Assembly: GCA_012838425.1 (NCBI GenBank)
Contig: DUPG01000021.1
Location: 21,413-85,412, forward strand
Length of the DNA stretch: 64,000 nucleotides
DNA from: Clostridiales bacterium
Lineage (GTDB): Bacteria; Bacillota; Clostridia; Christensenellales; CAG-138
Direction of reading: 5' to 3'
Made by a program: the position numbers and the translations under genes. The notes beneath the pieces are model-generated. The model was given only the letters and a program-made list of their open reading frames with translations, searched no databases and was not told the DNA's origin. Within the stretch, counting starts at the first letter, position 1. The number at the start of each line of letters is the position of its first letter. Shown piece by piece: positions 3,486-63,864 of this stretch.

Positions 3486-3527
3486 CAAATAAAAACAAAA
3501 GCGTTTGAGATATTCCCAAACGCTTTC
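3486..3527 (-). terminator. rho-independent terminator after the prepilin-like gene
   Basis: Perfect 10-bp stem AAAGCGTTTG / CAAACGCTTT (about 3498-3526). On the minus strand it is followed by TTTTGTTTTTATTT. Confidence 0.65.
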
Positions 3528-3554
3528 ATCAGATTTATTAACGGATAATTAAGC

Positions 3555-5039
3555 TTACGCGCCTAAGTTGCGAACCTTGCCGCCTGCGATTCTGCCAATG
3601 AGTTCAGAAGAAGCATTTGTTTGAATAGCAACTGAGCCATCGTGGTTGTATATCGTTACATTGTTGGTAATTGCGTTGCCAAACTTGTCAAAGCCTGTGA
3701 AATAACCAGTGGAACCGCTGCTGGGAGTACCTACTATCTTGCTGCCGGCGCCAACTGTGAAATTCTTGAACTCGGCATCCTGCTCAATATGATATGCAAT
3801 CATATATCCTGCTGTCAATGTGCCTGTTGACTCTTGAGTCATTGTGCCTGTGTATGAGCAGTCGATTATAGATGTTTCATTACCTGTCTGCGCAGCGATA
3901 CCACCCATCAATGTGTTACCTGTTGTGAGTGTGGTTGTGAAATCAGCGTTTACATGGCAGTTCTTGAATGTTGAGCCTGCTGTGTACCATGCAATACCGC
4001 CTATCTGTTTAGTGCCAATGAGTTTACCCGAAACATTGATGTTCTGGAATACGCAGTCATAGCCATAATATGCTGCAGCCGCAAGACAGTCATTCGAGTC
4101 GTCAGTCTTGACATTTACAAAATTGACATTCTTAATGCAAGACTTTGTTTCGCCGTCCCAATATGTGCCGCCAAACAAAGCGCAGCCTGTAATCTGTACA
4201 GTATTTCCTTCGCCGTCTATGTAAGGCAAGGTAATAACATCAGTAGAGTTCAGGTCGTAAATTGTATGACCGTTGCCATCGAATGTTCCCAAGAAGGAAT
4301 CATTGTAGTCGCCTATGGGAGTCCACTCAATACCGCCCAAGAAAATATCGCAGTCTAATTTCAAATTAGTCGCCAAATCAAGCTGACCGTTGTTAAAATA
4401 CTGTGCGAAGGAATACAAATCGCGTGTGCTCTTAATCAATATCGCTTCTTTAGTAACACCATTTGCGTCTGTTACAGTAGTTGTTTGGTTTTGCAATGTT
4501 GCAAGAGGAGTTAATACGCTGAAATATGCGTTTGTATCCTGCATATCACCGGTTATTCTGCCTTCATATATATGAACATTAGTGAGATGCGCCCCGATTT
4601 GCGTTCTGCCGATTACCGCAGAGGATGAGCCAAGCACTACAGTACGGCTGACCAAATCATCAAGCACGGCCTCAATAGCAACACGAAGCTGCTCCTCGTA
4701 ATCCGCAGCATTTTTGTTAACGGAGCAATCAAAAACCAACTCGGTTTCCTTAACGCTTCCGCCGATATCCGACACATATTCAAAAACATATAGCTTATTC
4801 GCTTTGTGAACGAATATTAGTGAGTCTGGAACTACCGCGCCAGCGCCCTCGGGATTGTCAGCAGTTTCGATAATGTGATTAGTAATCTCATTCTTTGCAT
4901 CAGCATATGCTGACTTGCGATTAGACTTCTCAATAATATTTGAGAAGGACGGTATCAAAATTGCAGCTAATATGCCTATTACCGCAATCACTATAATCAA
5001 CTCAACAATAGTGAACGCTCTTTTGCTCTTGTTTTTCAT
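3555..5039 (-). CDS. prepilin-type N-terminal cleavage/methylation domain protein with large GLUG-motif/beta-helix C-terminal domain
   Basis: 494 aa. The N-terminus MKNKSKRA|FTIVELIIVIAVIGILAAILIP is a class III (type IV pilin) signal with Glu at +5. The C-terminal ~300 aa carry an FDGNGHTIYDL motif and repeated G-G-[IT]-[AY] turns (LFGGT, IGGIAW, MGGIAAQ, IGRIAGG), as in GLUG-motif adhesin repeats. AGGAG RBS. Confidence 0.8.
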   Translation of the reverse strand: MKNKSKRAFTIVELIIVIAVIGILAAILIPSFSNIIEKSNRKSAYADAKNEITNHIIETADNPEGAGAVVPDSLIFVHKANKLYVFEYVSDIGGSVKETELVFDCSVNKNAADYEEQLRVAIEAVLDDLVSRTVVLGSSSAVIGRTQIGAHLTNVHIYEGRITGDMQDTNAYFSVLTPLATLQNQTTTVTDANGVTKEAILIKSTRDLYSFAQYFNNGQLDLATNLKLDCDIFLGGIEWTPIGDYNDSFLGTFDGNGHTIYDLNSTDVITLPYIDGEGNTVQITGCALFGGTYWDGETKSCIKNVNFVNVKTDDSNDCLAAAAYYGYDCVFQNINVSGKLIGTKQIGGIAWYTAGSTFKNCHVNADFTTTLTTGNTLMGGIAAQTGNETSIIDCSYTGTMTQESTGTLTAGYMIAYHIEQDAEFKNFTVGAGSKIVGTPSSGSTGYFTGFDKFGNAITNNVTIYNHDGSVAIQTNASSELIGRIAGGKVRNLGA

Positions 5040-5097
5040 AGCTTACGCTCCTTTCTTTACAAGCGTTAATAATTACTACGCTCGCTACAAAAAATGT

Positions 5098-5126
5098 AGC
5101 ATATCATATTTGTTGAATGTTGTCAA
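5098..5126 (-). promoter_or_regulatory. candidate sigma-A-type promoter for the prepilin-like gene
   Basis: Minus strand reads TTGACA (5126-5121), 17-nt spacer, TATGCT (5103-5098), about 55 nt upstream of the ATG at 5039. Confidence 0.4.
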
Positions 5127-6540: not shown

Positions 6541-7539
6541 TTATTCGCCTACTATTTTTTGAGCAAAGCTGTTATCTACCAAATCCGTAAAATCAACTCT
6601 TGACTTAAGCTCTCCGGCGGTTTCTATAACATCGAGCAAGCGGTTAAAGGAATCCTCTGTCATAATGGGATTCTGCATCCAACAGTCTGCTTCGCGATAG
6701 CTCTTTGCGACCGCTTCAAGTATTTCTATTGAGGTGTCGGGGAAGAATGGCTGAACAGCAGTCGCTATTTCATTGTCTGTAGCTGTAACAACCCATTTTT
6801 GCGCAGCATAGATTGAGCGCAAGAACGCTTCTATGAATTGCGGGTCATCTTTTATCATCTTTTGAGTTACCATGAATGTCGTATAAGGTATTTCGCCCGA
6901 TTCAAGACCTATTTGGCTTACTATGTAGCCCTTGCCCTCTTTTACCAGCATGGAAGCTGTGGGCTCAAACAAAGGTACATAATCGCCTGTTCCACCCTCA
7001 AATGCACCAGCTATGAGGTTGAATTGAATATTATCAAGCACAGTAACATCAACGCCGGGGGTTAAGCCATGCTTTTTGAGAATGTACTCAAGCGTCATAA
7101 AGGGCATACCGCCGCGTCTGCCGCCTATAATCGTCTTACCCTCTAAGCTTTCCCAAGTGAAAGTATCCTTTTCATCAACACGCGAAATCAAAAATGAGCC
7201 GTCGCGCTTTGTTAGCTGCCCTATTATTACGGGGTGGTCTTCTTTACCTTCGTTTATTACATATACGCCTGTTTCCGGTCCCATGAGAGCAATTTCCGCG
7301 TCGCCGGCTAACAGCGCCGTCATGCTCTTGTCGCTTCCGCCGCCAGTTACTATTTCGATTTTCAAGCCATTTTCCTCAAAAAAGCCCTTTGAAGCGGCAA
7401 CATAAAGCGGCGTATAGAATACCGAGCGCGTTACCTCATTCAATGTGAACTCCCTTAGTTTCTCCTCATTGTTTTCACAGCCTGCAAGCATTGTGAAAAT
7501 AAGCAATAAGCACATTAAAGCTAAGATAATCTTTTTCAT
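6541..7539 (-). CDS. ABC transporter substrate-binding lipoprotein, NMT1/THI5-SsuA/TauA-like
   Basis: 332 aa. Signal peptide with canonical lipobox LAGC. Body resembles the NMT1-like periplasmic binding fold (FYTPLYVAASKGFFEENGLKIEI). GGAGG RBS. Confidence 0.8.
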   Translation of the reverse strand: MKKIILALMCLLLIFTMLAGCENNEEKLREFTLNEVTRSVFYTPLYVAASKGFFEENGLKIEIVTGGGSDKSMTALLAGDAEIALMGPETGVYVINEGKEDHPVIIGQLTKRDGSFLISRVDEKDTFTWESLEGKTIIGGRRGGMPFMTLEYILKKHGLTPGVDVTVLDNIQFNLIAGAFEGGTGDYVPLFEPTASMLVKEGKGYIVSQIGLESGEIPYTTFMVTQKMIKDDPQFIEAFLRSIYAAQKWVVTATDNEIATAVQPFFPDTSIEILEAVAKSYREADCWMQNPIMTEDSFNRLLDVIETAGELKSRVDFTDLVDNSFAQKIVGE

Positions 7540-7710
7540 ATTAAAAGAACCTCCAGTTTTGACTTTATTACAGCATATTCAACAAGGCTTGTTTGGGTTA
7601 CAAAATATTTCTGTTTCGTTGTGATTTAATTTATGATTGCAAAATCCGCCATGATATTATATAATTGATAAGTATTGATATAGGCAGCATAAACCATGGA
7701 GGTAGTACAT

Positions 7711-9372
7711 ATGAAATGTCCTGTTTGCGGCACTGAAAACCCCGATAATCACAAGTTTTGCTCTGAATGTGCATATCCTCTCTCAAAGGCTGATAACAGC
7801 ACAAAAGAAGGCGAATCAGATATAAACACAGACGAAAATCCCCCGGCGGAGCAGGCTGATAGCCGCCCCAAACAGCGTGCGTTGTCGGAATCCGCGCAGA
7901 GAATACTTGATAATCTTTTCGACGACGAGGAATCTGATAATTCAGAGAAAGCAACGGACGACGAAGAGGAATTCGACGAAGAGCTTGATGAAGAAGAGTA
8001 TGACGACGAAGAGCTTTTAGACGATTCAGACGATGAGGAGGAATACGAGGAAGCTCCGCGCCGCAAAGAAAAGAAGGTTATGAGAGAAAATACAGAAAGA
8101 GAAAAGAAAACAAAGAATAAACGCAAGGCAGAAGGCGGCGGCAACGCACCATTCATATTTGTAACAATTGTGCTTATTGTGCTTATTGCCGCACTGTTCT
8201 ATGTTTATCTTTTGAAGGAATTTAACGGCAGCTTAAACCTGTTGGTTTCTAATTACTTCGGCACTAATCCTATAACTGCGCCTGCAACCATTACCGAGGT
8301 TACGACCGAAGACGGCGAGCCTGCGCTATTGATTACCGTATATGCAAAGAAGGGATATATTGTGCTGTTTGAAGAAGGCTCCGCACGAAAAGAGGCAGTA
8401 GTCGAGGGTCATTCAGTATCCTTCAGGGTGCCGCAGTCGCTGTGGATTCCGCAGGACGCTTCGGAAACCGATGTAATAGAGATAAAGCCTACTGTTTTTG
8501 TGAAAGACCCGAACACGAATGTAATCACACAGGTTGAGTTCACGCCCTTTGTGATTCATATACCTTCTGTTACGGTTACTATACTGCTTCCCGAAACGCT
8601 TACTTTTGTTACCAGCTCCTCAACTGTTGAGATAGCAGGCTATGTGAGCGACCCGACAGCAAGCGTTTTCATGGGTAACACTCAGCTTCAAACAGACGCG
8701 AACGGTTACTTCAGAGGTATATACCATTTAGAAAAGTTAGGCGAAACACAGGTTAAAATCGAAGCGCGCAAGGCAGGCTATGCCGTAGGCAGCGCAGTCA
8801 TTAGCATTACATACACAAAGAGCGAGATTAACCTGAACATTACTAACGATACTATGCGCACATTTACCGACACAATAGAGATTAAGGGCACTATTGACCC
8901 GGGCGCTACGCTTTCGGTATCAGGCATTGAGGTTGAAGGCGATATATCAGTTAATGAAGACGGTTCTTTCAGCTTCATAGCAAAGGTGCCTAATGTAGGG
9001 CTGTATACTCCTAAGCTCACAGTATCACATGGTGATGTTACATCATCTGTGGATATTTATATAGAGCACGCCCCCGACCTTGACGAGTACATTCAGACCG
9101 CATGGGCATTAGACTATCAATGGATGTTAGAGCACCCGAGCATGAACCGCCACTTCGGCTTTACATGCAAGGTTATTGAGGTTATGCAGTCTGAGCCGTT
9201 CGTTATAGCCAAGGTCAGAACAGACAGCGGCGATTTGATAGTTTACTACTACCACACCACATTGGTAGAGGCTAATGACGGCAAGAATTACAGAATGTAC
9301 GCCTACTTAGACGGCAAGGACTTAGAAACCGGCTTGCCCATAATGTACTGCTGGTTCATTTACAAGAGCTGA
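7711..9372 (+). CDS. zinc-ribbon / polyacidic / single-TM membrane protein with Ig-like extracytoplasmic repeats (TcaA/YvbJ-like architecture)
   Basis: The ORF track starts at 7696, but GGAGG at 7698-7702 favours the ATG at 7711 (MKCPVCGTENPDNHKFCSECAYPL, a CxxC...CxxC ribbon). A D/E-rich tract follows, then a K/R patch, a TM segment (FIFVTIVLIVLIAALFYVYLL) and ~380 aa of beta-rich sequence. Confidence 0.7.
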   Translation: MKCPVCGTENPDNHKFCSECAYPLSKADNSTKEGESDINTDENPPAEQADSRPKQRALSESAQRILDNLFDDEESDNSEKATDDEEEFDEELDEEEYDDEELLDDSDDEEEYEEAPRRKEKKVMRENTEREKKTKNKRKAEGGGNAPFIFVTIVLIVLIAALFYVYLLKEFNGSLNLLVSNYFGTNPITAPATITEVTTEDGEPALLITVYAKKGYIVLFEEGSARKEAVVEGHSVSFRVPQSLWIPQDASETDVIEIKPTVFVKDPNTNVITQVEFTPFVIHIPSVTVTILLPETLTFVTSSSTVEIAGYVSDPTASVFMGNTQLQTDANGYFRGIYHLEKLGETQVKIEARKAGYAVGSAVISITYTKSEINLNITNDTMRTFTDTIEIKGTIDPGATLSVSGIEVEGDISVNEDGSFSFIAKVPNVGLYTPKLTVSHGDVTSSVDIYIEHAPDLDEYIQTAWALDYQWMLEHPSMNRHFGFTCKVIEVMQSEPFVIAKVRTDSGDLIVYYYHTTLVEANDGKNYRMYAYLDGKDLETGLPIMYCWFIYKS

Positions 9373-10843: not shown

Positions 10844-12958
10844 ATGAGTAAGCTTCGCATATTTGCTTGTATCCTGCTATGCGCAGTAATGCTATTTAGC
10901 TCTTGCACTTATTCTGAAGTTACGGGAAGCGAATTTGCAAGGATATTTTTAGCTGATATTTGCAATATGGACTTTTCCTCTGCCTATAAGAAAGTTAACG
11001 AGTCTACAAAAAACACAATATCGCAAGACGAGTTTGTTGCGCTGTATAATCAGATAATAGAAGGGCTGTCCGTTGAGTCTATATCCTATAAATTTATATC
11101 CCAACAGGAAAGCATAAACACAACTGTATTCAAATATGAGCTTACATATCACAGCACATTTGCCGGCGAAATCACTGACGAATACCGCTTATGCGTTTCA
11201 AAAGGTCAAAACGAGAAATGGTGCGTGCTATGGTCGCCATCATTGATACTGCCTGAGATGGAGTACGGAGCGACAATTAAAACATCAAGGATACTGCCCC
11301 AGCGCGGCGAGATATTAGCGAGCAATGAAGTGCTTGCAACCAATATATACACTACTGCGCTATCAGTTGTAACGCACGAAAAAACAGATGAGGAGTTAGA
11401 CAGCATAGCCACAGAGATTCATAGGCTATTGCCTGACCTTCCAAAAGATAAAATACTAACACAAATGAAGGAAAAGTCGTACAACGGCGTAGCGTTGATA
11501 CGCGAGTTCTTTCCTAACAGTTTAAGCGACGAATTGAAAGACAAGCTGTCTGAGATAAATGGCGTGAGGATTGAGCGCAGTTCAGTAAGTACCGTAAGAT
11601 ACTACCCCCACTCTACTATGCTTTCACACTTTTTGGGCTATGTGCAAAGCCCTACCGAAGAAGAAATTGAGAATCTGAACTCAGCGCTTGGCGAAGATGA
11701 CTGGAAGTACGATAATAGCTCAAAAATAGGCATGAGCGGCTTAGAAAAGGTTTATGAGAAATACCTGCGCGGCGAGCCCGGGTACTCTGTGTATCTTTCT
11801 TCAAAAGACGGTGTAAGGCTTAGAACGCTATACTCAGAGCCAGCGAAGAACGGCTATGATATTCAGTTGACAATAGATTTTGAGCTGCAGCAACGCACAG
11901 AGGAGCTATTACAAAACATACTCATAGACGAAGAAGATATGACAGGAGCCGTTGTAGTGCTTCAACCTAAAACGGGAGATGTGCTTGCCGCGGCTTCGTA
12001 TCCGTCATTTGACCTGAATATGTTTGTACGCGGCATAACCGATTCGGAATATCAGGCGTTGCAGAACAACAATGCGCTTTTCAACCGCGTATTGCAGGGC
12101 AGGTATCCGCCGGGCTCAACATACAAGGTATTTACTGCGGCTGCCGCCTTAAATTACGGAGTATTGAGCAAGGACTATGTGTTTACGGGAACCATAGTTG
12201 AGGATTATTGGACTCCCACAGAGTATGGTCCTTGGATTTGGCCTGCAATAAAGCGCGCGACAGTAAAGAGGCGTGAAACTCCACTGAATATGCGAAATGC
12301 GCTGCTGCATTCCGACAACATTTATTTTGCTAATGCCGCCTTGATGCTTGGCGATGACAGAATGATAGAGTTCTGGAACAGCTTAGGGCTTGATAAGGCA
12401 ATAGATTTTGAGCTTCCCGTGGCGACATCACAATACAAAGGCAACGAGGAGCGCCACTATAAGTATTTAGCCGACAGCGGTTACGGGCAAGGCACTATGC
12501 TGGTTACTCCCATACAGCTTGCGGCAACCTACTGCGCTTTTGCGAATGGCGGCTCTATTCCTACTCCGCATATAATTGACAGCATTTGCGAAATGCAGGG
12601 TAAGGACTATTTAACCGTTTATCAAACAGGCACTACGCTTTGGCGTGAGAATGCGATTCACAGAAATATTATAAACACGCTGCTACCCATGATGAAGGAT
12701 ATTATGAGCAGCGAATACAACGGCACCGGTCAACGCCTTAAAGTAAGAAGCTGTGTAGCCGCAGGCAAGACGGGCACAGCGCAGATTGGCGGCGATGACA
12801 GCCACGAGATCTCTTGGATTGTGGCATTCAGAACAGGCGTTGACGCGAAAGACGAGCGCCTTGTATTAGTAATGCTTGAGATACCAAACAACGACGCGTA
12901 TTCGGAATTCAAGTTCACAATAGCAAGAGAGTTATTGGAGTTGAAGGATAACGAATGA
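10844..12958 (+). CDS. class B penicillin-binding protein (transpeptidase) with NTF2-like (MecA_N-type) N-terminal domain, probable lipoprotein
   Basis: 704 aa. Signal sequence ends ...MLFSSC. Active-site motifs are STYK (GSTYKVF), SDN (HSDNIYF) and KTGTA. AAGGAGGG RBS. Confidence 0.9.
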   Translation: MSKLRIFACILLCAVMLFSSCTYSEVTGSEFARIFLADICNMDFSSAYKKVNESTKNTISQDEFVALYNQIIEGLSVESISYKFISQQESINTTVFKYELTYHSTFAGEITDEYRLCVSKGQNEKWCVLWSPSLILPEMEYGATIKTSRILPQRGEILASNEVLATNIYTTALSVVTHEKTDEELDSIATEIHRLLPDLPKDKILTQMKEKSYNGVALIREFFPNSLSDELKDKLSEINGVRIERSSVSTVRYYPHSTMLSHFLGYVQSPTEEEIENLNSALGEDDWKYDNSSKIGMSGLEKVYEKYLRGEPGYSVYLSSKDGVRLRTLYSEPAKNGYDIQLTIDFELQQRTEELLQNILIDEEDMTGAVVVLQPKTGDVLAAASYPSFDLNMFVRGITDSEYQALQNNNALFNRVLQGRYPPGSTYKVFTAAAALNYGVLSKDYVFTGTIVEDYWTPTEYGPWIWPAIKRATVKRRETPLNMRNALLHSDNIYFANAALMLGDDRMIEFWNSLGLDKAIDFELPVATSQYKGNEERHYKYLADSGYGQGTMLVTPIQLAATYCAFANGGSIPTPHIIDSICEMQGKDYLTVYQTGTTLWRENAIHRNIINTLLPMMKDIMSSEYNGTGQRLKVRSCVAAGKTGTAQIGGDDSHEISWIVAFRTGVDAKDERLVLVMLEIPNNDAYSEFKFTIARELLELKDNE

Positions 12959-21325: not shown

Positions 21326-22750
21326 ATGAGTGGTTTATTTGGTGTTGTATCAAAAACGGATTGCGTAAGCGATGTATTTTTCGGCACAGACTATCATTCA
21401 CACTTAGGCACAAAGCGCGGAGGAATGGCGATTCTCAACTGCGAAGGCTTCAACAGGGCAATTCACAACATTGAGAATTCCCCCTTCAGAACAAAGTTTG
21501 ATGCTGAAATCGCTACTATGAAGGGCAACAGCGGCATAGGCTGCATATCAGACTCTGACCCGCAACCCCTGATTGTACGCTCACACCTTGGCAACTATGC
21601 GATAATGGGTGTAGGGCGTATCAACAATGTGGACGAGCTTGTTGAGCACACATTCAAAAACGGCAGAACACAATTCTTAGAGATGAGCGGCGGTAAAATC
21701 AACAATGTTGAACTTTGCGCCGCTTTAATCAATGAGTGCGAATCTATTCCTGAGGGTATCAGGTTCGCGCAGCAGAAAATCGACGGTTCTATGTCAATAC
21801 TTGTGCTGACTTCTGACGGAATATATGCCGCACGCGACTACTGCGGAAGAACTCCGTTAGTAATCGGCAAGAAGGAAGGCGCATACTGCGTAGCGTTCGA
21901 GAGCAGCTCATTCATCAACTTAGATTACGAATTCCACAGGGAGATAGGGCCCGCAGAAGTCGTGTTCATAACCGCAGAAGGCGAGCAGACTGTACTCCCC
22001 GCATTAGACACAATGCAGATTTGCACATTCCTTTGGGTATATTACGGCTACCCCACCTCAATTTACGAAGGCGTAAATGTTGAGGCTATGAGGTACAAGG
22101 GCGGCGAAATACTTTCACAGCGCGATCGTGGCATTGATATTGATTCTGTTGCGGGAATACCGGATTCGGGCTCGGCATACGCTATTGGCTATTCAAACGC
22201 CTCTAACATTCCTTTTGCCCGTCCTTTCATTAAATACACACCTACTTGGCCGCGTTCGTTCATGCCATCAAATCAGGCGCAGCGCAACCGTATCGCGCAC
22301 ATGAAGCTGATACCCGTTAAGGCGTTGATAGAAAACAAGAAGCTGCTTCTGATTGACGACTCAATTGTTCGCGGAACGCAAATGGGCGAAACCACAGAAT
22401 TCTTGTATAGAAGCGGCGCTAAGGAAGTGCATGTTAGAGCGGCCTGCCCTCCCCTGATGTTCGGATGTAAGTTTTTGAACTTCTCGCGCTCAACCTCTGA
22501 AATGGAATTGATTGCAAGGCGCGTTGTTCATGAGCTTGAAGGCGATGTTACAAGGGAAAGGCTGTTAGATTACACTAACACAGACAGCGCGGAATACGAA
22601 GCAATGGTAGAGGGCATAAGAAAGCAGCTCAACTTCACTTCTCTGAAATTCCACAAGCTTGAGGACATGGTGGCTTCTACCGGATTGCCTGAATGCAAGC
22701 TGTGCACATATTGCTGGAAGGGCAAGGACGGTTGCTGCAAGGCGAACTAA
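21326..22750 (+). CDS. amidophosphoribosyltransferase (PurF)-like protein lacking the N-terminal Cys nucleophile
   Basis: The ORF track starts at 21242. AAAGAGGT RBS favours the ATG at 21326 (MSGLFGVV..., 474 aa). Collinear with PurF: PRPP loop LLLIDDSIVRGTQ, and Cys residues at Fe-S ligand positions. Confidence 0.8.
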   Translation: MSGLFGVVSKTDCVSDVFFGTDYHSHLGTKRGGMAILNCEGFNRAIHNIENSPFRTKFDAEIATMKGNSGIGCISDSDPQPLIVRSHLGNYAIMGVGRINNVDELVEHTFKNGRTQFLEMSGGKINNVELCAALINECESIPEGIRFAQQKIDGSMSILVLTSDGIYAARDYCGRTPLVIGKKEGAYCVAFESSSFINLDYEFHREIGPAEVVFITAEGEQTVLPALDTMQICTFLWVYYGYPTSIYEGVNVEAMRYKGGEILSQRDRGIDIDSVAGIPDSGSAYAIGYSNASNIPFARPFIKYTPTWPRSFMPSNQAQRNRIAHMKLIPVKALIENKKLLLIDDSIVRGTQMGETTEFLYRSGAKEVHVRAACPPLMFGCKFLNFSRSTSEMELIARRVVHELEGDVTRERLLDYTNTDSAEYEAMVEGIRKQLNFTSLKFHKLEDMVASTGLPECKLCTYCWKGKDGCCKAN

Positions 22751-51190: not shown

Positions 51191-51700
51191 TTGGAAGTAA
51201 TTATACCCATACTGCTGCTTGTTATGTTCATAGCGGCGGCATATAAGAAAACAAGCGTGTATGATTCATTTGTACGCGGGGCGAAAAACGCACTTCCTGT
51301 GCTTGTTTCTATACTTCCATACTTGGCGGCTATGTTGGCTGCAATAAATATTTTCAGGGCATCGGGAGCGCTGCAAGGCTTCATAGACTTGTCATCACCT
51401 GTTATGGAGAGCATAGGAATACCAAAAGAGCTCACGCCGTTGGTAGTCTTACGCCCTTTTTCGGGAAGTGCCGCAATAGCTTTGTTAGACGATATATTCA
51501 AGACCTGCGGACCTGATTCATACCAAGGAGTATTGGCTTCCGTTATGTTAGGCTCAACGGAAACGATATTCTACACAGTAGCGCTATATTTCGGCTCAAT
51601 AGGAATAAAGAAAACGCGATACAGCATACCTACAGCACTAATAAGCGGCATAGCGGGAATTGCGGCATCTATAATTGCAGTAAAGCTCATGTATGATTAA
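51191..51700 (+). CDS. spmB: spore maturation protein B
   Basis: 169 aa. TTG start 1 nt after the spmA stop. Polytopic Gate-domain-like protein. Confidence 0.75.
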   Translation: MEVIIPILLLVMFIAAAYKKTSVYDSFVRGAKNALPVLVSILPYLAAMLAAINIFRASGALQGFIDLSSPVMESIGIPKELTPLVVLRPFSGSAAIALLDDIFKTCGPDSYQGVLASVMLGSTETIFYTVALYFGSIGIKKTRYSIPTALISGIAGIAASIIAVKLMYD

Positions 51701-54700
51701 GACTTATCCTTAGTAACGCCAAGCTGAACAGCTGCGCCCTTAAACACAGGGAGCTTTTGAATGTTTCTTCTTTTTAGCTTCTGCACAAACTCCTCTTCAC
51801 TCATAGGCATATCGAAATAATAGCCCTGCACAATATCACAGCCTGCACTACGCACCAACTCAAACTGCTCCTTAGTTTCAACGCCCTCAGCAATGGTTAA
51901 CAGCTTGTGCTTCTTAGCATAGTAGAATACACATTCTAAAATAGTGTCTAACACCAATGATGATTTGTTGCTCTTCAATAAGCTCTTATCTATTTTAATA
52001 ATATCGCATTGAACATCCTTCAACAAAGCTAATGTAGAAAGACCTGTGCCGAAATCGTCAATCGAAACCAAGAAGCCTGCCTCTCTTATGCTGTTCATGC
52101 AGGATACTATGCTGTCGTGATTGAATACGAATGCGGACTCGGTGAGCTCAATTTCCAACAGTCTGCGGGGAATATCATACTTTGCCGCAGTCGATATCAG
52201 GCGATATACGAATTCGGGCCCGAAGTTATGCACGCGCGAGAAGTTTACCGAGATGGGTACGCAGGGATTGCCCAAGTCAATTTGCTTGCGTAAAAACTCG
52301 CACACGGTTTCGAACATGAACCAATCAAGCTTGATAATCAGCTTGTTTCTCTCAAACAGGCTAATAAACCTTTCCGGCAATAACAGCTCGCCATTAGGTT
52401 TTTTCCAGCGCACCAACGCTTCTGCGCCTACAACCTTTTCAGTCTTACAGTCATATTTAGGCTGATAGTAGGCTATGAACTCCTTGTTCTGCAAAGCGTG
52501 CTCCATGCTGCTGCTCAGCCGTAATTCCTCCATCATTCTTTGGTGGATTTCATTGCTGTAAATAGCTATGTTGTTTTCGTAATTGCCTTTTATTGTACGC
52601 TTTGCTGTTCGCGCCTTATCAAGCATTGTGCTAATATCTTCGCTATAATCATCGATTTCATATAGACCGTAGCTCAATAGCAGGTTAAAGCCTTGAATCA
52701 AGTTCTTTAATTTCTTGTCAAGCGCTTTGATTGCCTTCATAGCCGCTTGCACATTATCGAAAGACAATAGCGCGACGAAATGATCGGATTCAGTATGTGC
52801 GCAAATATCATTTTCACCGCAAATATTGGATAAGTGGCTTGCTACCTTACGCAGCAAATCATCGCTTATTTCGCTGCCGAAGAAGCAATCTAAATTCTCG
52901 AAGCGGTTTATATCGAAATCGAGGACATATCTCTTCTTATTGTCATTCTTATTAGCAAGAAGCTCTGTCGCCTTATGCTTGAAGCCATAGTAATTGAGAA
53001 TGCCCGTAAGCGAATCCTTATATTCCTTTACGGTAGTGACTTCAAACAGAGTTTTCTTGCGGGTGTTTTCATGTATGCTTTGCTTGATTTGGTACATAGT
53101 GTCCTCAGCTTTTTTCTGAAGCAAACGCATAAACATAGGGCTGATGTGAGTTACCTTTTCATCTATATAGCCGCACGCCGCAGAAAGCTTGAAGGTGCTT
53201 TGCTGATTGTATCGCTCTATCGCGTTTTCTAACTTTTGAAGCACATTTTCAGGCACTTCGTCAACGAAAATCAGCGCGAATTCATCTCCGCCAATTCTGA
53301 AGCACTCGCCTACTCCACCCGAAGCAGACTGCATACACATAGCAAGCGCGACAATGAGCCTGTCGCCGACTTCGTTGCCGTAATTGTCGTTAATAGCCTT
53401 TGTTCCGTTAATATCAGCAATTATAATTGCTATGCGGCTGAAAGAAATATTGCCGCTGCCCAACTCCATTAGCCTTTGGTCGTATGCCGCGCGGTTGCCT
53501 ACGCCTGTCATAGCATCGGTATATGCCATACGCTTGTAGAGATTGAAGTGAACATGCTCGCTCGTGAGCTTCTGGTTCTTATTCCACGCTATGAATGACA
53601 AGAACACCAAGTATGCCGATAAGCTTGCACGGCATAACAGCGCATAGCCTTTTCCATATCTATAGCCTGCGCAAAGCAACGCAATGATCAAGAAGAAAAG
53701 TAAAGAGCCTGCAAAAACTACCTTTGCCTGTGGAGCCCGCTTAAAATTCCTGTAAAGAATGGACAAGAGAATCAGCACGGACACTGTCATTATTACTATA
53801 GTAATAGCAAGTGAATTCTCTAATCCCATTATTCCCGTTAGGTACAGGAATGATATTAGAAATACATTCAAAATATGCAGTATAGAAAGTAAATAGAAAG
53901 CCCTTGCTCCCCTTTGAGTTACGCCCTTCAAGAACAAAAAGTACGGTATGGGCATTACCATGAAGGTGTAGTATTTTATAAGCTCGATTAAGCGACCGTT
54001 TTTGAGCAATAGCTGCAGCAGCTGCGAATCTGCCAACATCCAAATAGCTGTAAGGAAAATATGGAATGACAGGTACAGAGTCGTCATGCTGCTTTCGCTG
54101 TCTAATCTGCGCTGAGATGTGAACATTATAAGCAATGCTATGCTGAATGCAAACAGCGCACCTACTATCGCGAAAGACGACGCCCTTTGCTGCAAAAACA
54201 GCGACAACGCCGAGCCGCTTGAGCCTATGCTTATGTCCGGAATCTTAACCTTGTTGTTTACGCCTACAAGCTGTACCGAAAGCGTTTTGCCTGCTGAGTT
54301 CGCAGGGATATGCACTACGCAGTAGTTATTGCCTATTATGTTCTGCGGGTCGGACAGATCTTCCATAGCATAATCAAAAATAACGTCGTCATTTATAGAT
54401 ACGCGAACAGCTTGAAGCTCACTTAAGAAAAACATTGTATTATATAAGTTCACTTCATTTGGCAGAGTTTTATATAAAGTAAATGACTTTTTGTTGATTA
54501 CTCCTAACTGGTCTAAATGAGATACATGAACGGTTTTTGCTTCATCAAAATAGTACCATGATGCGCCAAAGTCCATGTAATCATCAAAATCGATAGCTGA
54601 ATCAGATTTGCCGAAATTATAGCCTTTTAAGAAAAATAATACAACAACAGAAACTACTATTACTGCAACCAAAATTGCAAGCACTCGTAACGGCCTAAAG

Positions 54701-54756
54701 CCCTTGTTCGAAGTGTCTTGACTATTTGCAAAGTTAATATTGCTTTCAGCAATCAT
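51697..54756 (-). CDS. membrane c-di-GMP signalling protein: 7TMR-DISM-like sensor + GGDEF + degenerate GGDEF + EAL
   Basis: 1019 aa. N-terminal TM, ~150-aa extracytoplasmic domain, then seven predicted TM helices. GGDEF domain 1 has an intact RIGGDEF. Domain 2 reads TESDHF at that position. The EAL domain has EALVRW, DDFGTG, EGVET and QGYYF. Confidence 0.85.
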   Translation of the reverse strand: MIAESNINFANSQDTSNKGFRPLRVLAILVAVIVVSVVVLFFLKGYNFGKSDSAIDFDDYMDFGASWYYFDEAKTVHVSHLDQLGVINKKSFTLYKTLPNEVNLYNTMFFLSELQAVRVSINDDVIFDYAMEDLSDPQNIIGNNYCVVHIPANSAGKTLSVQLVGVNNKVKIPDISIGSSGSALSLFLQQRASSFAIVGALFAFSIALLIMFTSQRRLDSESSMTTLYLSFHIFLTAIWMLADSQLLQLLLKNGRLIELIKYYTFMVMPIPYFLFLKGVTQRGARAFYLLSILHILNVFLISFLYLTGIMGLENSLAITIVIMTVSVLILLSILYRNFKRAPQAKVVFAGSLLFFLIIALLCAGYRYGKGYALLCRASLSAYLVFLSFIAWNKNQKLTSEHVHFNLYKRMAYTDAMTGVGNRAAYDQRLMELGSGNISFSRIAIIIADINGTKAINDNYGNEVGDRLIVALAMCMQSASGGVGECFRIGGDEFALIFVDEVPENVLQKLENAIERYNQQSTFKLSAACGYIDEKVTHISPMFMRLLQKKAEDTMYQIKQSIHENTRKKTLFEVTTVKEYKDSLTGILNYYGFKHKATELLANKNDNKKRYVLDFDINRFENLDCFFGSEISDDLLRKVASHLSNICGENDICAHTESDHFVALLSFDNVQAAMKAIKALDKKLKNLIQGFNLLLSYGLYEIDDYSEDISTMLDKARTAKRTIKGNYENNIAIYSNEIHQRMMEELRLSSSMEHALQNKEFIAYYQPKYDCKTEKVVGAEALVRWKKPNGELLLPERFISLFERNKLIIKLDWFMFETVCEFLRKQIDLGNPCVPISVNFSRVHNFGPEFVYRLISTAAKYDIPRRLLEIELTESAFVFNHDSIVSCMNSIREAGFLVSIDDFGTGLSTLALLKDVQCDIIKIDKSLLKSNKSSLVLDTILECVFYYAKKHKLLTIAEGVETKEQFELVRSAGCDIVQGYYFDMPMSEEEFVQKLKRRNIQKLPVFKGAAVQLGVTKDKS

Positions 54757-59066: not shown

Positions 59067-62000
59067 TCAGCTTACATGTTTCAGAATAGCTGTGGCGTCG
59101 CCCGTGTTGATTACGCTGTCCTCATTGAAGTCTGCGACTGCTAACTGGCTATCATTCAAGGTAACAAGACCAGCGACATGGCGCAATACTAACACAGCGT
59201 CGCCCGCGTCAATCCTTCCGTCCTTGTTGATATCGCCTAACTCGGGAGACAGCACTTCATACATCGCAGTAATTACAGTATCTGACACTATGGGCGTTTT
59301 GTCGTAATCCCAGCCCACAAACTTGTATCCATCGTGCTCCGGCGGAAACGGGAAGTTCTTAATAATAGTTCCATGCGCTACTTCGGTTGTTTTAAGGATT
59401 TTTCCGTCAACCCCGTCAACGAACTTAACCTCGTATGTAACATACCTAAACTTAGCATATACATCGATATTCCTTGGCGGCATTGTCTGCGGCAGGCCTT
59501 CCCACTCTAAGAACACTTGCCCCTCATAAGGCGATTCGGGGTCCTCGGGCGGTACTATTGCTTCACCGACCGCATAGTCCTGCGTGGTGTATAACTCTTC
59601 ACCAACATAGTATGATACTGTGAAATACGGGCTTTCATCATTGTAGTATATAGCAAAATCGTCAACCATGATTATGTATTGGTCTGTAGATTCATAGTGA
59701 CGCAATGCGATATGCACTTTTTCGCCCGCATACTCGGTTAGGTTTATTACGCGCTCGCTCCATTCGGGGTCAAATATTTTCTCGGAGAATAAGAGCTCAT
59801 AGGTTGTATAGTCTGTGCCTGTACCGATATATATGGCGTATTTCTCCTTATAATAGCTCTTATCAGGCGCGCCGACAAAGTATGTCAACACTACCGACAT
59901 GGCGTCTTGGGGTATCTCTATTTCGGGAGATATAAGCCAGTTGTCTGGCGTTAACGCGCCTACATCATTTATATAAGATGATGAGTAGGCAACGCCCTTG
60001 CCATGATATGCTGTCAGGTCTGTTGTCTGATCCCAGCCATAGCCGTCACCATCTGCATCAACGAATGTCCAGCCAGTCGGAAACTTCTCAAAGCTCTCGC
60101 CGAACAACAGCTTACCATATGGAGAGGAGGTGTCGGGCAGCTTATACAGCCTTATTGTATCAAGCTTTAGGAAGAAACCGTCTGTGCAGTCATAGTGCCG
60201 CCATGCAAAGCGAACTGTCTTGCCTGCATAGTCGGCTAAATCTACGCTGTACTTGGTGTATTCCTTGCTTGTGAAGGGCTTTTCTGTAATAACAGACTTA
60301 AAGTCTTTATAATTCTGACCATCTAAGCCAATATAGAACCCGAACGCTTCGTCAGAATCAAGCGTTGACATATAGAACTCTAATGTATATTCACCGCCAT
60401 CGTCCTCAAGCTTTATGGGCTTGCTTATCAGCCAGTTATCCGGCGTCAAGGGCTTTTGAGCTGCATTATCGTATGAGGCTGAGCCTGCCCAATATTGACC
60501 CTTATGCGCTTCGTGCGGAGTGCTGTAAACGCCCCATTCAAAGCCGTCGCCATCAGCGTCTACTGTATCCCAATAATCGTATGTGCTTTCATTTTCCCAT
60601 GTTTCTTCCCATACGATTTCTCTATCGTCGGGCGCTTCATAGAAGGGGTTGCCGTCAATTTTTGTTACTACATTCTTGTCTAAATCGACCTTGTAGCCCT
60701 GACCATTGCCTGCGTAATCGGCACAGAACACATATACAACGCCGCTGTAGCCTGTAACGCTTGTTACCTTGTTGCGCTGTTGCTCGAATACGCCCATTGC
60801 CGCGTTCTCGGAGTACAGGTTCTTAAACTCGTTATCCGAATATACGCCTATATAGGCGACATAGTGCGAATCCTGAACATTTATAGTCTTATTGCTGCCT
60901 ATTGTGAGAACAGGCGCCACAGTATCGTATGTAACAGGTATTACCCACCTGCCCGACTCGTTGTTTTCGGGCTTGTAGTCCTCATGGTCTAACCATGTTT
61001 CTAATACTAAGTTTACGGTTTCGCCCTCGCTCATGCCCGCGGGGTTGAATTCGAATGAGAAATCGCAGTATGTATAGCCTGACAGGGTTACGAAGTCCTT
61101 GCGCCATGTGCGCTCGTTGGATTCGTACAATATATCGGTATGGTCTGAGTACTCAGCTTTCATATAAACCATTCTTGCGTTTCTCAGCAATGTGAAGGCG
61201 ATATAGTCTATATAGTCCTGAATACCGTCGTCATTAGGTGAGAATGCGCCCCAATCGGGATTGAACTCAACACCCTCCATGCTTTCTACATAGGGGTTCA
61301 AGCCTACCGCAACACCTCTGCCCTTGTCGCTGCCTATGTAGTTGTAATCTATGCCTGTACCGCTGTTCCAGTTAAATTCGCCTGTGGCGGCCTGCCAGTA
61401 GTATCCGCGGTCTAACATTGAAGCGTAATCCCAATCGCCTACAAAGCCTAAAAATGGGATAGACAATTCCGCGTCCAAGGTACCGTCGGAATACTTCTCG
61501 GGAACGAACTTCACAAAGCCTTCAAGATATGAGCCTGATGGGAAGTTCTTTGCGTAGAAGTCAAGCAGTGCATTTTTAGCAGCCATTTTTATCTCGATTG
61601 TCTTGCTCTTGCCTGCTTCGACTGTTACTTTTTCGGGAGCTGTTATATCGCAATCGGCCGTAACATCAATCGATTCGTTATTGGTTGCGATTATGTCTTT
61701 TCCGTCGTGCTCGCCTATTACTACGGGCTTATCAGCAAGCGCTAATACATCAATATTGTATGTGATAGCCTCATCGCCGAAATTGTTTATAATTACCTTG
61801 AAAGTCCATTCGCCCTTGTCGTTCTCGCCAAGCTCAAGCTTAGGACGGTCAACGCCCTCTACCGACAGATACGCATTCGTAACAGTTGCGCCTGCAAGGT
61901 TTAATAGACCTGCGCCCTGCTCGCGCACATTTTCATTATCCAATATTGTAGCTGTGCTCATTAAGATTGCGTTAACAACCTTTGCACGCTCGCTCGGTGT

Positions 62001-63800
62001 AAGTCCGGGCAGCTTATCCATTACATACTTGTTTACTATAGCCATAGCCGCCGCGACATGAGGCGACGACATTGAAGTGCCGTCCCATGTTTCATACGCG
62101 CTGTTGCCTTGGAAGCCCACTGCTGAGGTGATTGAACCGCCGGGAGCTGTGATTTCGGGCTTAATTAGCAAGTCTGCGGTTGTTCCTCTGCTTGAGAATG
62201 AGGATATGACATTCGCATTTGTCATATCCATAAACAGCTTGCTCTCAACTGTCAGCTTGCCATAGCCGTTTGCATCAGCCTTCTCTACCATTTTCTGACC
62301 CCATTGCTGCAATATAGACACAACAGGAACGGTAGATTCAACCGACATCAGCAGTATTCCATCAACATTGTTATAGATAATTACCGCTACAGCACCCGCA
62401 TCAACAGCATTCTTGGCCTTTTCGGTGAATGTGATCTCGCCGCGCTCTATAAGCGCAATTTTGCCGGACAGATCCTTGCCATCAAAATCTGCCTTTTTGC
62501 CTAATCCACAGAAAACATAGTCGTAATCGCCGCTTAACCTTGAAAAATCCTTATCTGTGCCCTCGAACGGGTCTGTATAGCCGAATTGCATATCGCCGCA
62601 AATAATCGAAGCTGCGGAAAGCATAGCGTTATCCGACGACGCGACGCTCAAGGGCAGCGAATATGTTGAGGGAGAACCTACTGTGCCGTAATCGGGGTTA
62701 GATGAAAGCTGATAGCCTTCCCACGCGTTGCCGTCGGCTGTGGTTCCCTCATTGCCTGCGGAGGCCGATACATTGATACCGGCGTTTACAAGCGTTTCGA
62801 ACACCTTGTCGAAAGAATCGTTAAAGTATTTTGAGAAGCCTGCGCCTGAGCCTAAGCTCATATTTATTGAATCTATGCCCAAGTAGGCGCAATCCTCCAA
62901 CGCCGCCATTACCTTTTCCCACGCTGTGCCGCCCTCTGCGGAGAACACCTGCATTACAACAAGCTGCGCGTCATAGGCAACGCCCTTGAAGTCCTTGCCG
63001 TTATTGCCTGCCGCTATAGCCGCAACATGCGTTCCATGATCGCTTGCAGTATGCTTGGGGTCGTAATTCTCGAACTGATAATCCCAGCCGAAAGGTATTT
63101 TGTCGCTTTTATACAGCTTATCAACCTCTTTGCCGGCGTGCATGAACTCGCCGTATTGATTCATAATCTGCTGCAGCTTATCCTTTGTTAACTTCAATGT
63201 AGAAGAATCGGGCATTACGGAAAACGCTTCGTGCGTGAGCAATATGCCTGTATCCAATATCGCTATTGCCGTACCCTCGCCCGTGTAGCCTAAGTCCCAT
63301 GCCGATAATGCGTTAACCAATGAAGTGCTCGCCGTCATTTTCGGTTCCGGAGCTTCGTATGTAGGCGCACGGAAAGCCCTCATTCCATTGATTGAGTTTA
63401 TTTGGGGAATGAGCTTGGCTTCACCCTTGAAAACAAAACCGTTGAAAAGAAGCGAATAATTATAGATCGGATTTACTTTTGCGCCTAACTTTTTCTCTAA
63501 TGATTTTTGCGCTGTTACCTGTTTTTTAAGCAGTTCCCTTTGATATGAAGCATTAGTGGTTTTCAGCTTGCCCGAAGCCTTCAATGCAGGCTCGTCAGAC
63601 AGCAATTCAACCACTATTGATACTATTTCATTATCTTCTGCCCCACCCTTGCTGTCGCTCAACAGCTCTTGCTTATGTATGCCCGCTTGGATACCATTGC
63701 TTATCAATACCTTCGCCGCAAATACGGTTGCGTATAAGCTCGAAAGCATAATCAGCATGGCTAATACATAAGCTAATATGCCTTGAACATGTTTTTTCAT
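59067..63800 (-). CDS. secreted S8 (subtilisin/lactocepin-C5a-peptidase-like) serine protease with PA insert, two gingipain-type adhesin (choice-of-anchor-J-like) modules, Listeria-Bacteroides-type repeats and a C-terminal type I dockerin
   Basis: The ATG at 63800 (MKKHVQGILAYVLAMLIMLSSLYATVFA signal) follows GGGGG. Catalytic triad contexts are AILDTGI, HGTHVAAIAAG and GTSMSSPHVAAA. The PA-like insert is GKIALIERGEITFTEKAKNAVDAGAVAVIIYNN. Duplicated DADGDG[FY].W ... LTPDNWLIS modules are present. YEVKFVDG...GYKFVGWD is the repeat. The dockerin is GDINKDGRIDAGDAVLVL / ADFNEDSVINTGDATAIL. Confidence 0.9.
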   Translation of the reverse strand: MKKHVQGILAYVLAMLIMLSSLYATVFAAKVLISNGIQAGIHKQELLSDSKGGAEDNEIVSIVVELLSDEPALKASGKLKTTNASYQRELLKKQVTAQKSLEKKLGAKVNPIYNYSLLFNGFVFKGEAKLIPQINSINGMRAFRAPTYEAPEPKMTASTSLVNALSAWDLGYTGEGTAIAILDTGILLTHEAFSVMPDSSTLKLTKDKLQQIMNQYGEFMHAGKEVDKLYKSDKIPFGWDYQFENYDPKHTASDHGTHVAAIAAGNNGKDFKGVAYDAQLVVMQVFSAEGGTAWEKVMAALEDCAYLGIDSINMSLGSGAGFSKYFNDSFDKVFETLVNAGINVSASAGNEGTTADGNAWEGYQLSSNPDYGTVGSPSTYSLPLSVASSDNAMLSAASIICGDMQFGYTDPFEGTDKDFSRLSGDYDYVFCGLGKKADFDGKDLSGKIALIERGEITFTEKAKNAVDAGAVAVIIYNNVDGILLMSVESTVPVVSILQQWGQKMVEKADANGYGKLTVESKLFMDMTNANVISSFSSRGTTADLLIKPEITAPGGSITSAVGFQGNSAYETWDGTSMSSPHVAAAMAIVNKYVMDKLPGLTPSERAKVVNAILMSTATILDNENVREQGAGLLNLAGATVTNAYLSVEGVDRPKLELGENDKGEWTFKVIINNFGDEAITYNIDVLALADKPVVIGEHDGKDIIATNNESIDVTADCDITAPEKVTVEAGKSKTIEIKMAAKNALLDFYAKNFPSGSYLEGFVKFVPEKYSDGTLDAELSIPFLGFVGDWDYASMLDRGYYWQAATGEFNWNSGTGIDYNYIGSDKGRGVAVGLNPYVESMEGVEFNPDWGAFSPNDDGIQDYIDYIAFTLLRNARMVYMKAEYSDHTDILYESNERTWRKDFVTLSGYTYCDFSFEFNPAGMSEGETVNLVLETWLDHEDYKPENNESGRWVIPVTYDTVAPVLTIGSNKTINVQDSHYVAYIGVYSDNEFKNLYSENAAMGVFEQQRNKVTSVTGYSGVVYVFCADYAGNGQGYKVDLDKNVVTKIDGNPFYEAPDDREIVWEETWENESTYDYWDTVDADGDGFEWGVYSTPHEAHKGQYWAGSASYDNAAQKPLTPDNWLISKPIKLEDDGGEYTLEFYMSTLDSDEAFGFYIGLDGQNYKDFKSVITEKPFTSKEYTKYSVDLADYAGKTVRFAWRHYDCTDGFFLKLDTIRLYKLPDTSSPYGKLLFGESFEKFPTGWTFVDADGDGYGWDQTTDLTAYHGKGVAYSSSYINDVGALTPDNWLISPEIEIPQDAMSVVLTYFVGAPDKSYYKEKYAIYIGTGTDYTTYELLFSEKIFDPEWSERVINLTEYAGEKVHIALRHYESTDQYIIMVDDFAIYYNDESPYFTVSYYVGEELYTTQDYAVGEAIVPPEDPESPYEGQVFLEWEGLPQTMPPRNIDVYAKFRYVTYEVKFVDGVDGKILKTTEVAHGTIIKNFPFPPEHDGYKFVGWDYDKTPIVSDTVITAMYEVLSPELGDINKDGRIDAGDAVLVLRHVAGLVTLNDSQLAVADFNEDSVINTGDATAILKHVS

Positions 63801-63864
63801 AACATTAACCCCCTTTGTATTACACGAAAAATCTCCCCCAAAAATTGAGAGTAAACGCAAGATT

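Follow-up and report, generated by a model that had tools for sequence, protein, structure and literature searches.

The 64,000-nucleotide stretch analyzed here (the window) covers positions 21,413 to 85,412 of contig DUPG01000021.1 from a Clostridiales bacterium (NCBI assembly GCA_012838425.1). On its minus strand it contains an open reading frame (ORF) at 3555..5039 that starts with ATG and encodes 494 amino acids followed by a stop codon. We refer to it below as the pilin gene, and to its product, which is identical to HHT87035.1 and already carries a prepilin-type name at NCBI, as the pilin protein. The protein is probably a modular type IV pilin. It would present a GLUG beta-helix on a pilus whose genes lie in another part of the genome, with the tip or its vicinity as the most likely position. 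The parts listed below were distinguished on the basis of two AlphaFold2 models (the separate N-terminal model covers residues 1–190) and family alignments; pLDDT is the predicted local distance difference test score.

3555..5039, minus strand: coding sequence of the pilin protein (HHT87035.1 at NCBI), which is modular and type IV pilin-like.
5016..5039, minus strand: class III leader peptide MKNKSKRA, residues 1–8; short and basic, with Ala at -1.
4857..5015, minus strand: alpha1 helix, residues 9–61; Phe at +1, Glu at +5, a hydrophobic alpha1N and then an amphipathic alpha1C.
4542..4856, minus strand: rest of the pilin-like module, residues 62–166, as delimited by the models and family alignments.
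4455..4541, minus strand: Thr-rich linker, about residues 167–195, as delimited by model and alignment.
3720..4454, minus strand: GLUG beta-helix passenger, about residues 196–440; model pLDDT about 80–97.
3939..4013, minus strand: best Pfam Glug stretch, residues 343–367.
3558..3719, minus strand: C-terminal tail rich in Gly, Asn, Ser and Thr, residues 441–494; poorly modelled (pLDDT 26–40).

The original prediction for this gene placed a single beta-helix of about 460 residues behind the signal. Instead, the leader and alpha1 are followed by a three-stranded sheet (residues 73–104), a helix (111–130) and a variable stretch, which complete a pilin-like module ending at about residue 166, then by the linker, a beta-helix of about 250 residues (about 196–440) and a tail of 54 residues. 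The three strands (73–79, 82–89 and 95–104) were modelled with pLDDT values of 70–88. The variable stretch closes with the conserved motif VHIYEGRITG, and G160 and G164 are nearly invariant; residues 62–166 have almost no relatives beyond the closest homologues. The linker region was modelled with low confidence and joins separate modules. Homologues have Pro/Thr/Gly-rich linkers at the place of the Thr-rich linker of the pilin protein.

The N-terminus of the protein, MKNKSKRA/FTIVELIIVIAVIGILAAILIP (the slash marks the putative cleavage site), shows the features of class III signals: a basic leader of 8 residues that ends in Ala (-1), then Phe as residue +1, Glu as residue +5 and a hydrophobic stretch. 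Such a signal, with Ala at -1 and Glu at +5, had been predicted, and both hidden Markov models (HMMs) of prepilin N-termini supported it, Pfam N_methyl (PF07963) with 26.5 bits (cut-off 21.2) and TIGR02532 with 23.6 bits (cut-off 16.3). The full-length equivalog models PilA, GspG and ComGC matched only the first ~50 residues, with scores far below their cut-offs. Residues 11–61 were predicted to form a helix (pLDDT 88–97), and residues 2–54 were aligned by phmmer with 22 solved pilins and pseudopilins, including Geobacter PilA-N (the best match, E = 4.7e-10), PAK pilin, gonococcal PilE, Streptococcus sanguinis PilE1 and GspG. In each solved pilin matched, F9 aligned with residue 1 of the mature chain, and therefore the putative cleavage site was placed between A8 and F9. 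F9, E13 and other alpha1 positions are invariant in the family alignment.

The passenger contains the motifs WTPIG, FDGNGHTIYDL (residues 253–263) and GGIA (at 347 and 379). The FDGNGHTIYDL and GG[IT]A-type turns had been assigned to the C-terminal third of the protein; the motifs are indeed present, but FDGNGHTIYDL is located in its middle. Pfam Glug (PF07581) was detected in two stretches with a borderline score of 21.0 bits (cut-off 20.5). The predicted structure of the C-terminal part is a beta-helix that matches solved GLUG domains. In Foldseek searches the passenger model matched BACOVA_03286 of Bacteroides ovatus (3n6z) with an E-value of 1.9e-7 and a template modelling (TM) score of 0.48 on the target, as well as the IgA1 proteases 7uvk, 7uvl, 6xja and 7jgj from Gemella and S. 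pneumoniae (E-values of these matches ranged from 1.9e-7 to 2.6e-3); a marginal sequence match also falls within the beta-helix region of the IgA1 proteases. A HMMER search, run exhaustively with residues 40–494, revealed 1277 relatives, nearly all of which align at about residues 190–455 only and most of which are giant surface proteins of 1000–4900 amino acids with several copies of the GLUG unit. Among 30 mid-sized passenger relatives, Glug was found in 12 (best E = 7e-25) and Peptidase_M26_N in seven. HMMs, fold and homologues thus agree with the original assignment of the module to the GLUG or IgA-protease-type beta-helices.

No HExxH or H...H motif is present in the whole pilin protein, and no Pfam match to Peptidase_M26_C or to any other catalytic family was found in it. 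In the IgA1 proteases the beta-helix (NTD2) is non-catalytic and serves to gate and contact the substrate, while their HEMTH motif is located at the junction of other domains (PMC9637739). Because the protein lacks both HExxH and a catalytic-domain match and its structural match is to a non-catalytic beta-helix, the passenger appears to be a scaffold or binding domain and not a peptidase. Identity with M26 peptidases was ruled out by the missing HExxH motif and the missing catalytic domain, and the description of the module as enzyme-like is not supported.

To describe the family, we considered the best 120 homologues, of which 91 were prepilin-type (median 616 amino acids). The prepilin-type relatives are large proteins of uncultured Clostridia. 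In these 91 proteins position -1 is occupied by Gly in 52 cases and by Ala in 35, and position +5 by Glu in 86; Ala at -1, which had been regarded as unusual, is therefore a common variant of the family. The closest homologues share ~55% identity over the first ~90 residues and differ in their passengers: Glug, Flg_new, LRR_5, Big_2 and M26_N modules were all found on this common N-terminal part. The remaining 29 of the 120 are mostly Bacteroidota lipoproteins with an LAAC lipobox and the domains Mfa_like_1 and GLUG (e.g., P0061, P0094 and P0089). Since these lipoproteins pair it with Mfa_like_1, the GLUG passenger also occurs in another phylum, on a carrier that is of pilus type but unrelated.

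The genes for the closest GLUG-bearing homologues, P0017 and P0014, are followed by passenger paralogues that have no prepilin N-terminus. In locus L088 such a copy (7237–8817) encodes 526 amino acids, with a Sec-type signal, MKRTSIIKALSLLIAIAMALL, located just upstream in another frame, and the copy is therefore either frameshifted or mis-assembled. In loci L089 (3928–4491) and L090 (12171–12734) the paralogue is reduced to a fragment of 187 amino acids; the main gene of L090 is apparently split into a 562-codon part and an 81-codon ORF (11740–11985). Taken together, the paralogues of L088–L090 read as the outcome of tandem duplication and decay, with the same passenger placed on two kinds of signal. 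We considered whether the copies located 3' of the P0017 and P0014 genes are silent cassettes of the pilS type and rejected this for L088, where an ordinary Sec signal lies upstream. No second copy of the passenger was found in the window.

According to the favoured reading, the basic leader of eight residues would be cut off between Ala8 and Phe9 by a prepilin peptidase whose gene lies in another part of the genome. The hydrophobic alpha1 (residues 9–61) would first anchor the protein in the membrane and would then dock the small pilin module, which ends at about residue 166, into a type IV pilus; the PilB/PilC/PilD machine of this pilus would likewise be encoded elsewhere. The linker would extend the ~250-residue GLUG beta-helix and the tail as a non-enzymatic binding module, that is an adhesin, most likely at or near the tip. 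The predicted structure, in which a long alpha1 is followed by a small beta-sheet and then by a linker and a beta-helix, points to a modular pilin. N_methyl and Glug are present on one polypeptide with a linker between them, the arrangement by which modular pilins are recognised (Raynaud et al., 2021; PMC8179133). Judged from its sequence, the protein would thus be classified as a bearer of a class III signal and a modular pilin, and would not be classified as an M26 peptidase.

Relatives also provide a link to a pilus. In a related metagenome, a complete pilus operon with PilD, PilC and PilB (L003) starts with the gene of a 606-amino-acid protein, P0054. The operon encodes in this order two pilins, a minor pilin, a 431-amino-acid protein, then small proteins, and finally an A24 peptidase, T2SSF and a T2SSE that contains MshEN. 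The N-terminus of P0054, MKNNKRA/FTIVELVIVIAVIGILAA, has Ala at -1 and an alpha1 nearly identical to that of the pilin protein. A metagenome-assembled genome (MAG), CAYXWN01, contains both a pilus operon syntenic with L003 (L012) and an orphan locus with two prepilins of 440 amino acids (L017). Operon L012 also encodes a short, major-type pilin, with which the pilin protein shares 59% identity over 54 residues of alpha1. The original prediction, a tip or minor pilin with an adhesin or enzyme-like module, is therefore partly supported: indirectly as to pilus display (through the register of alpha1, the operon of P0054 and the genome CAYXWN01), but not as to an enzyme-like module.

Tandem pairs of prepilin-type paralogues of 440–444 amino acids were found in two MAGs of uncultured Clostridia (L016, 5062–7990; L017, 740–3660), one of which also bears the pilus operon L012. 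These paralogues have near-identical leaders (MNLKKKKG, then FTI(A/V)ELVIVIA...) and contain no recognised passenger domain.

Several results weigh against a pilus-borne adhesin. With alpha1 removed, no significant similarity remained between the pilin protein and P0054, and the link to the operon therefore consists only of a shared alpha1 handle; orthology with this operon-encoded pilin was rejected on the same ground. When the N-terminal model was searched against PDB with Foldseek, no pilin was matched significantly (the best E-value was 0.1, to unrelated folds), and so, while the homology of alpha1 to solved pilins is established, the globular pilin fold stands as a model prediction. The Pfam Glug score is borderline, barely over its cut-off. 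No pilus machinery and no other pilin were found in ~74 kb, that is the window and its known flanks, by tblastn, for which all proteins encoded in two Clostridia pilus operons served as queries; the sole match was the pilin gene itself. Finally, most large members of the family are orphans among housekeeping genes (L002, L007, L008, L010, L011, L014–L017, L020, L023 and L088–L090), which also fits a route that involves no pilus.

The orphan status of the gene, predicted for the 64 kb, was borne out by Pfam annotation, by a six-frame motif scan of the window, which revealed a single prepilin N-terminus, that of the pilin gene, and by tblastn, which extended it to ~74 kb. When the 431-amino-acid PilM/N-like protein of operon L003, which evolves fast, was used as a query, no match traceable to the organism of the window was obtained, and there was no genome of the same species among the matches listed (80 loci, alignment A2 locus scan).

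The orphan location of most large family members leads to the first alternative, which the original prediction also named and according to which the signal serves for processing and anchoring and no long pilus is involved: the protein would be held in the membrane via alpha1 or by a short pseudopilus-like stub and would display its beta-helix on the surface, as a member of a family of orphan surface proteins with a common handle. We consider this rather unlikely, although much in the family agrees with it. Besides the prevalence of orphan genes, several MAGs hold at least two copies of the family, and passengers as diverse as those listed above (Glug, Flg_new, LRR_5, Big_2 and M26_N) are swapped on a conserved N-terminus of ~90 residues. 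Moreover, the tandem passenger paralogue in L088 appears to use an ordinary Sec signal, and hence the passenger seems to need no pilin carrier. Against it, the strict conservation of Glu at +5 and of the whole of alpha1 is what one would expect of packing in a filament, and pilins encoded in operons use the same alpha1. In addition, a domain tethered by a linker of ~30 residues would presumably sit under the cell wall of a monoderm bacterium.

One may extend this alternative and suppose that prepilin peptidase together with the near-invariant alpha1 handle forms a general surface-display route in uncultured Clostridia of gut and digesters, parallel to sortase and dockerins, in which the mostly orphan genes of a diversifying family swap passengers such as the GLUG beta-helix, Flg_new, BspA-type LRR and Big_2, and some of the proteins might never enter a long pilus. 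This generalisation is doubtful. If it were true, the presence of GLUG on the type V pilus-like carriers of Bacteroidota would represent reuse of one passenger across phyla for filament-borne adhesion.

It is quite improbable that the pilin protein is instead a major-like subunit within the filament body, with beta-helices along the length of the pilus. Glu at +5 is kept, alpha1 resembles that of the short pilin of L012 to the extent given above, and the 606-amino-acid pilin takes the first pilin position in L003; a location in the body is also possible given a flexible linker (PMC8179133). However, a passenger of ~330 residues per subunit would be hard to pack, by the reasoning used for modular pilins (PMC8179133), and an orphan, monocistronic gene suggests low abundance.

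Two further explanations were considered. In one, the N_methyl match would be fortuitous, the N-terminus an ordinary Sec signal or signal anchor, and the product a generic membrane-anchored or secreted GLUG protein. This is very unlikely: the N_methyl motif is short and its scores are modest, the machinery is missing from the ~74 kb and Foldseek found no pilin fold, but the hallmark positions are all present and invariant in the family, the 53-residue match to solved pilins (E = 4.7e-10) is in register with their mature N-termini, and a near-identical N-terminus is found inside a pilus operon. A pilus-delivered M26-type (IgA-protease-like) peptidase, as the combination IPR012902-IPR011493 was read by Raynaud et al. 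(PMC8179133), has the structural matches to IgA1 proteases and that wording in its favour, but hardly deserves credence, given that the protein has neither an HExxH or H...H motif nor a match to Peptidase_M26_C or another catalytic family, and that the part of the IgA1 proteases matched is the non-catalytic beta-helix, with HEMTH in other domains. The modular pilin thus remains the favoured reading.

The following sequence elements were revealed around the pilin gene.

5098..5126, minus strand: promoter-like site TTGACA-17-TG-TATGCT, TG-extended, with 10/12 consensus matches, ~59 nucleotides 5' of the ATG.
5048..5052, minus strand: Shine-Dalgarno sequence AGGAG, 8 nucleotides 5' of the ATG, read from the sequence.
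3494..3530, minus strand: intrinsic-terminator-like hairpin of 17 pairs with a 3-nucleotide loop and a T-run, 25 nucleotides past the stop codon.

A monocistronic gene with its own promoter and a strong terminator had been proposed. Both elements were located, but the regional counts of such sites in our promoter and terminator scan were not above shuffled expectation, and the two sites are therefore suggestive of, and consistent with, a monocistronic pilin gene. Control by a riboswitch, for cyclic di-GMP (c-di-GMP) or another ligand, was considered and rejected, as nothing credible was found with Rfam in the 145-nucleotide leader of the gene; no Rfam family reached its gathering score on either strand of the 64-kb window.

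The pilin gene is intact and occupies the same, syntenic position in four metagenome assemblies. An 83-kb contig of JGI metagenome 3300002898 includes the window, and a further NCBI contig, of 1.49 Mb, bears a copy of the protein that is at least 90% identical. Only two amino-acid differences were found in the gene across the four assemblies, N246Y and C318N, both located in the beta-helix. The codons concerned are at nucleotides 4302–4304 and 4086–4088 (loci L095–L097 were compared); otherwise the four assemblies are 99.7–100% identical, and the flanking genes contain no or one change, mostly synonymous. The comparison of strain variants yielded just three to four nucleotide differences, too few for an analysis of selection.

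As the original prediction stated, the neighbours of the pilin gene are genes for a Glyoxalase/VOC protein, an M14 peptidase with PG_binding and LysM domains, and an NMT1-type binding protein, according to Pfam. The rest of the window consists of housekeeping genes of a Clostridia-type organism with 44% G+C (Pfam on large ORFs). The suggested comparison of neighbourhoods revealed that gene order around the homologues is wholly different and that the large relatives are mostly orphans; a functional link between the pilin gene and its neighbours was therefore rejected.

A 558-amino-acid protein encoded at 7696–9372 of the window (plus strand) is kept beside the pilin locus in all assemblies. It has an N-terminal zinc ribbon, a long acidic low-complexity stretch rich in Asp and Glu and a single hydrophobic segment, and its C-terminal part is Ig-like (Glucodextran_B-like).

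At 59067–63860 (minus strand) the window encodes a 1597-amino-acid protein composed of Peptidase_S8, PA, fn3_5, two Cleaved_Adhesin domains and a C-terminal type I dockerin, and a transglutaminase-core protein with a dockerin is encoded just beyond the window (L001, 17635–18816). Since S8 and transglutaminase-core proteins bear dockerins, the organism apparently possesses a cohesin-dockerin system for display, in this case of enzymes that are not cellulolytic.

A GGDEF-EAL protein of 1019 amino acids is encoded at 51697–54756 (minus strand). The pilus ATPase of the related operon L003 (17428–19125) has an MshEN domain, and such domains bind c-di-GMP. It is conceivable that c-di-GMP controls pili in this lineage.

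If the favoured reading of the pilin protein is right, the GLUG beta-helix joins the modules grafted onto type IV pilins, and the earlier guess of a pilus-borne M26 peptidase would be corrected to a non-catalytic beta-helix. The large pilins of uncultured Clostridia are usually encoded away from the pilus operon, and operon-based surveys will therefore miss them; such proteins are candidate adhesins of interest for gut and digester ecology. Nothing in our results overturns current understanding: the annotation of the protein as prepilin-type at NCBI predates this analysis, and its architecture is fairly ordinary among modular pilins.

IPR011493 is presumably the InterPro entry for GLUG, which would be consistent with the "M26" wording of the modular-pilin survey mentioned above. 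This survey comprised more than 1,200 proteins with 264 InterPro architectures (Raynaud et al., 2021; PMC8179133). Dataset S1 of PMC8179133 lists IPR012902-IPR011493 for six proteins, with the module read as an M26 peptidase; the combination of N_methyl and GLUG has thus already been catalogued and is uncharacterised. The pilin protein apparently has the same two-domain architecture. Unlike the published reading, however, it contains no catalytic motif and its module appears to be a non-catalytic beta-helix, so that on the evidence presented here the module was probably misread as enzymatic.

Comparison with known systems revealed that: (i) as in PilB and PilC of S. sanguinis, of which PilB (vWA) is a proven modular pilin (PMC8179133; PMC9934059), the pilin protein has a class III signal (IPR012902) and a small pilin module, which a linker joins to a bulky module of a kind not restricted to pili, and the function proposed in these cases is to bind ligands at the tip, while the pilin protein differs from PilB (vWA) and PilC (lectin) in having a GLUG beta-helix, an orphan location outside a pil locus and a pilin fold that is modelled only; (ii) it shares a GLUG-bearing right-handed beta-helix with NTD2 of the Gram-positive M26 IgA1 proteases (6xja, 7uvk and 7uvl) and with 3n6z, but at 13–15% identity, and in contrast to them it lacks an LPXTG anchor as well as G5, middle and catalytic domains, and its beta-helix sits on a pilin carrier; (iii) like Thermus ComZ (beta-solenoid), CofB of enterotoxigenic Escherichia coli and GspK of the type II secretion system, cited as related designs with a proposed tip location (PMC8179133), it adds an extra domain to a pilin carrier, and ComZ provides a precedent for a solenoid-type domain on a pilin, whereas past alpha1 no sequence similarity to these three proteins was detected, and their genes lie with those of their machineries, and their partners or ligands are known (DNA, CofJ); and (iv) its beta-helix module is 25–32% identical over about 200–300 residues to that of the Bacteroidota lipoproteins with Mfa_like_1 (PF13149) and Glug (P0061 and P0094), whose carrier is related to the fimbrillins of type V pili, although these are proteins of another phylum, with a lipoprotein signal and a carrier that is type V pilus-like.

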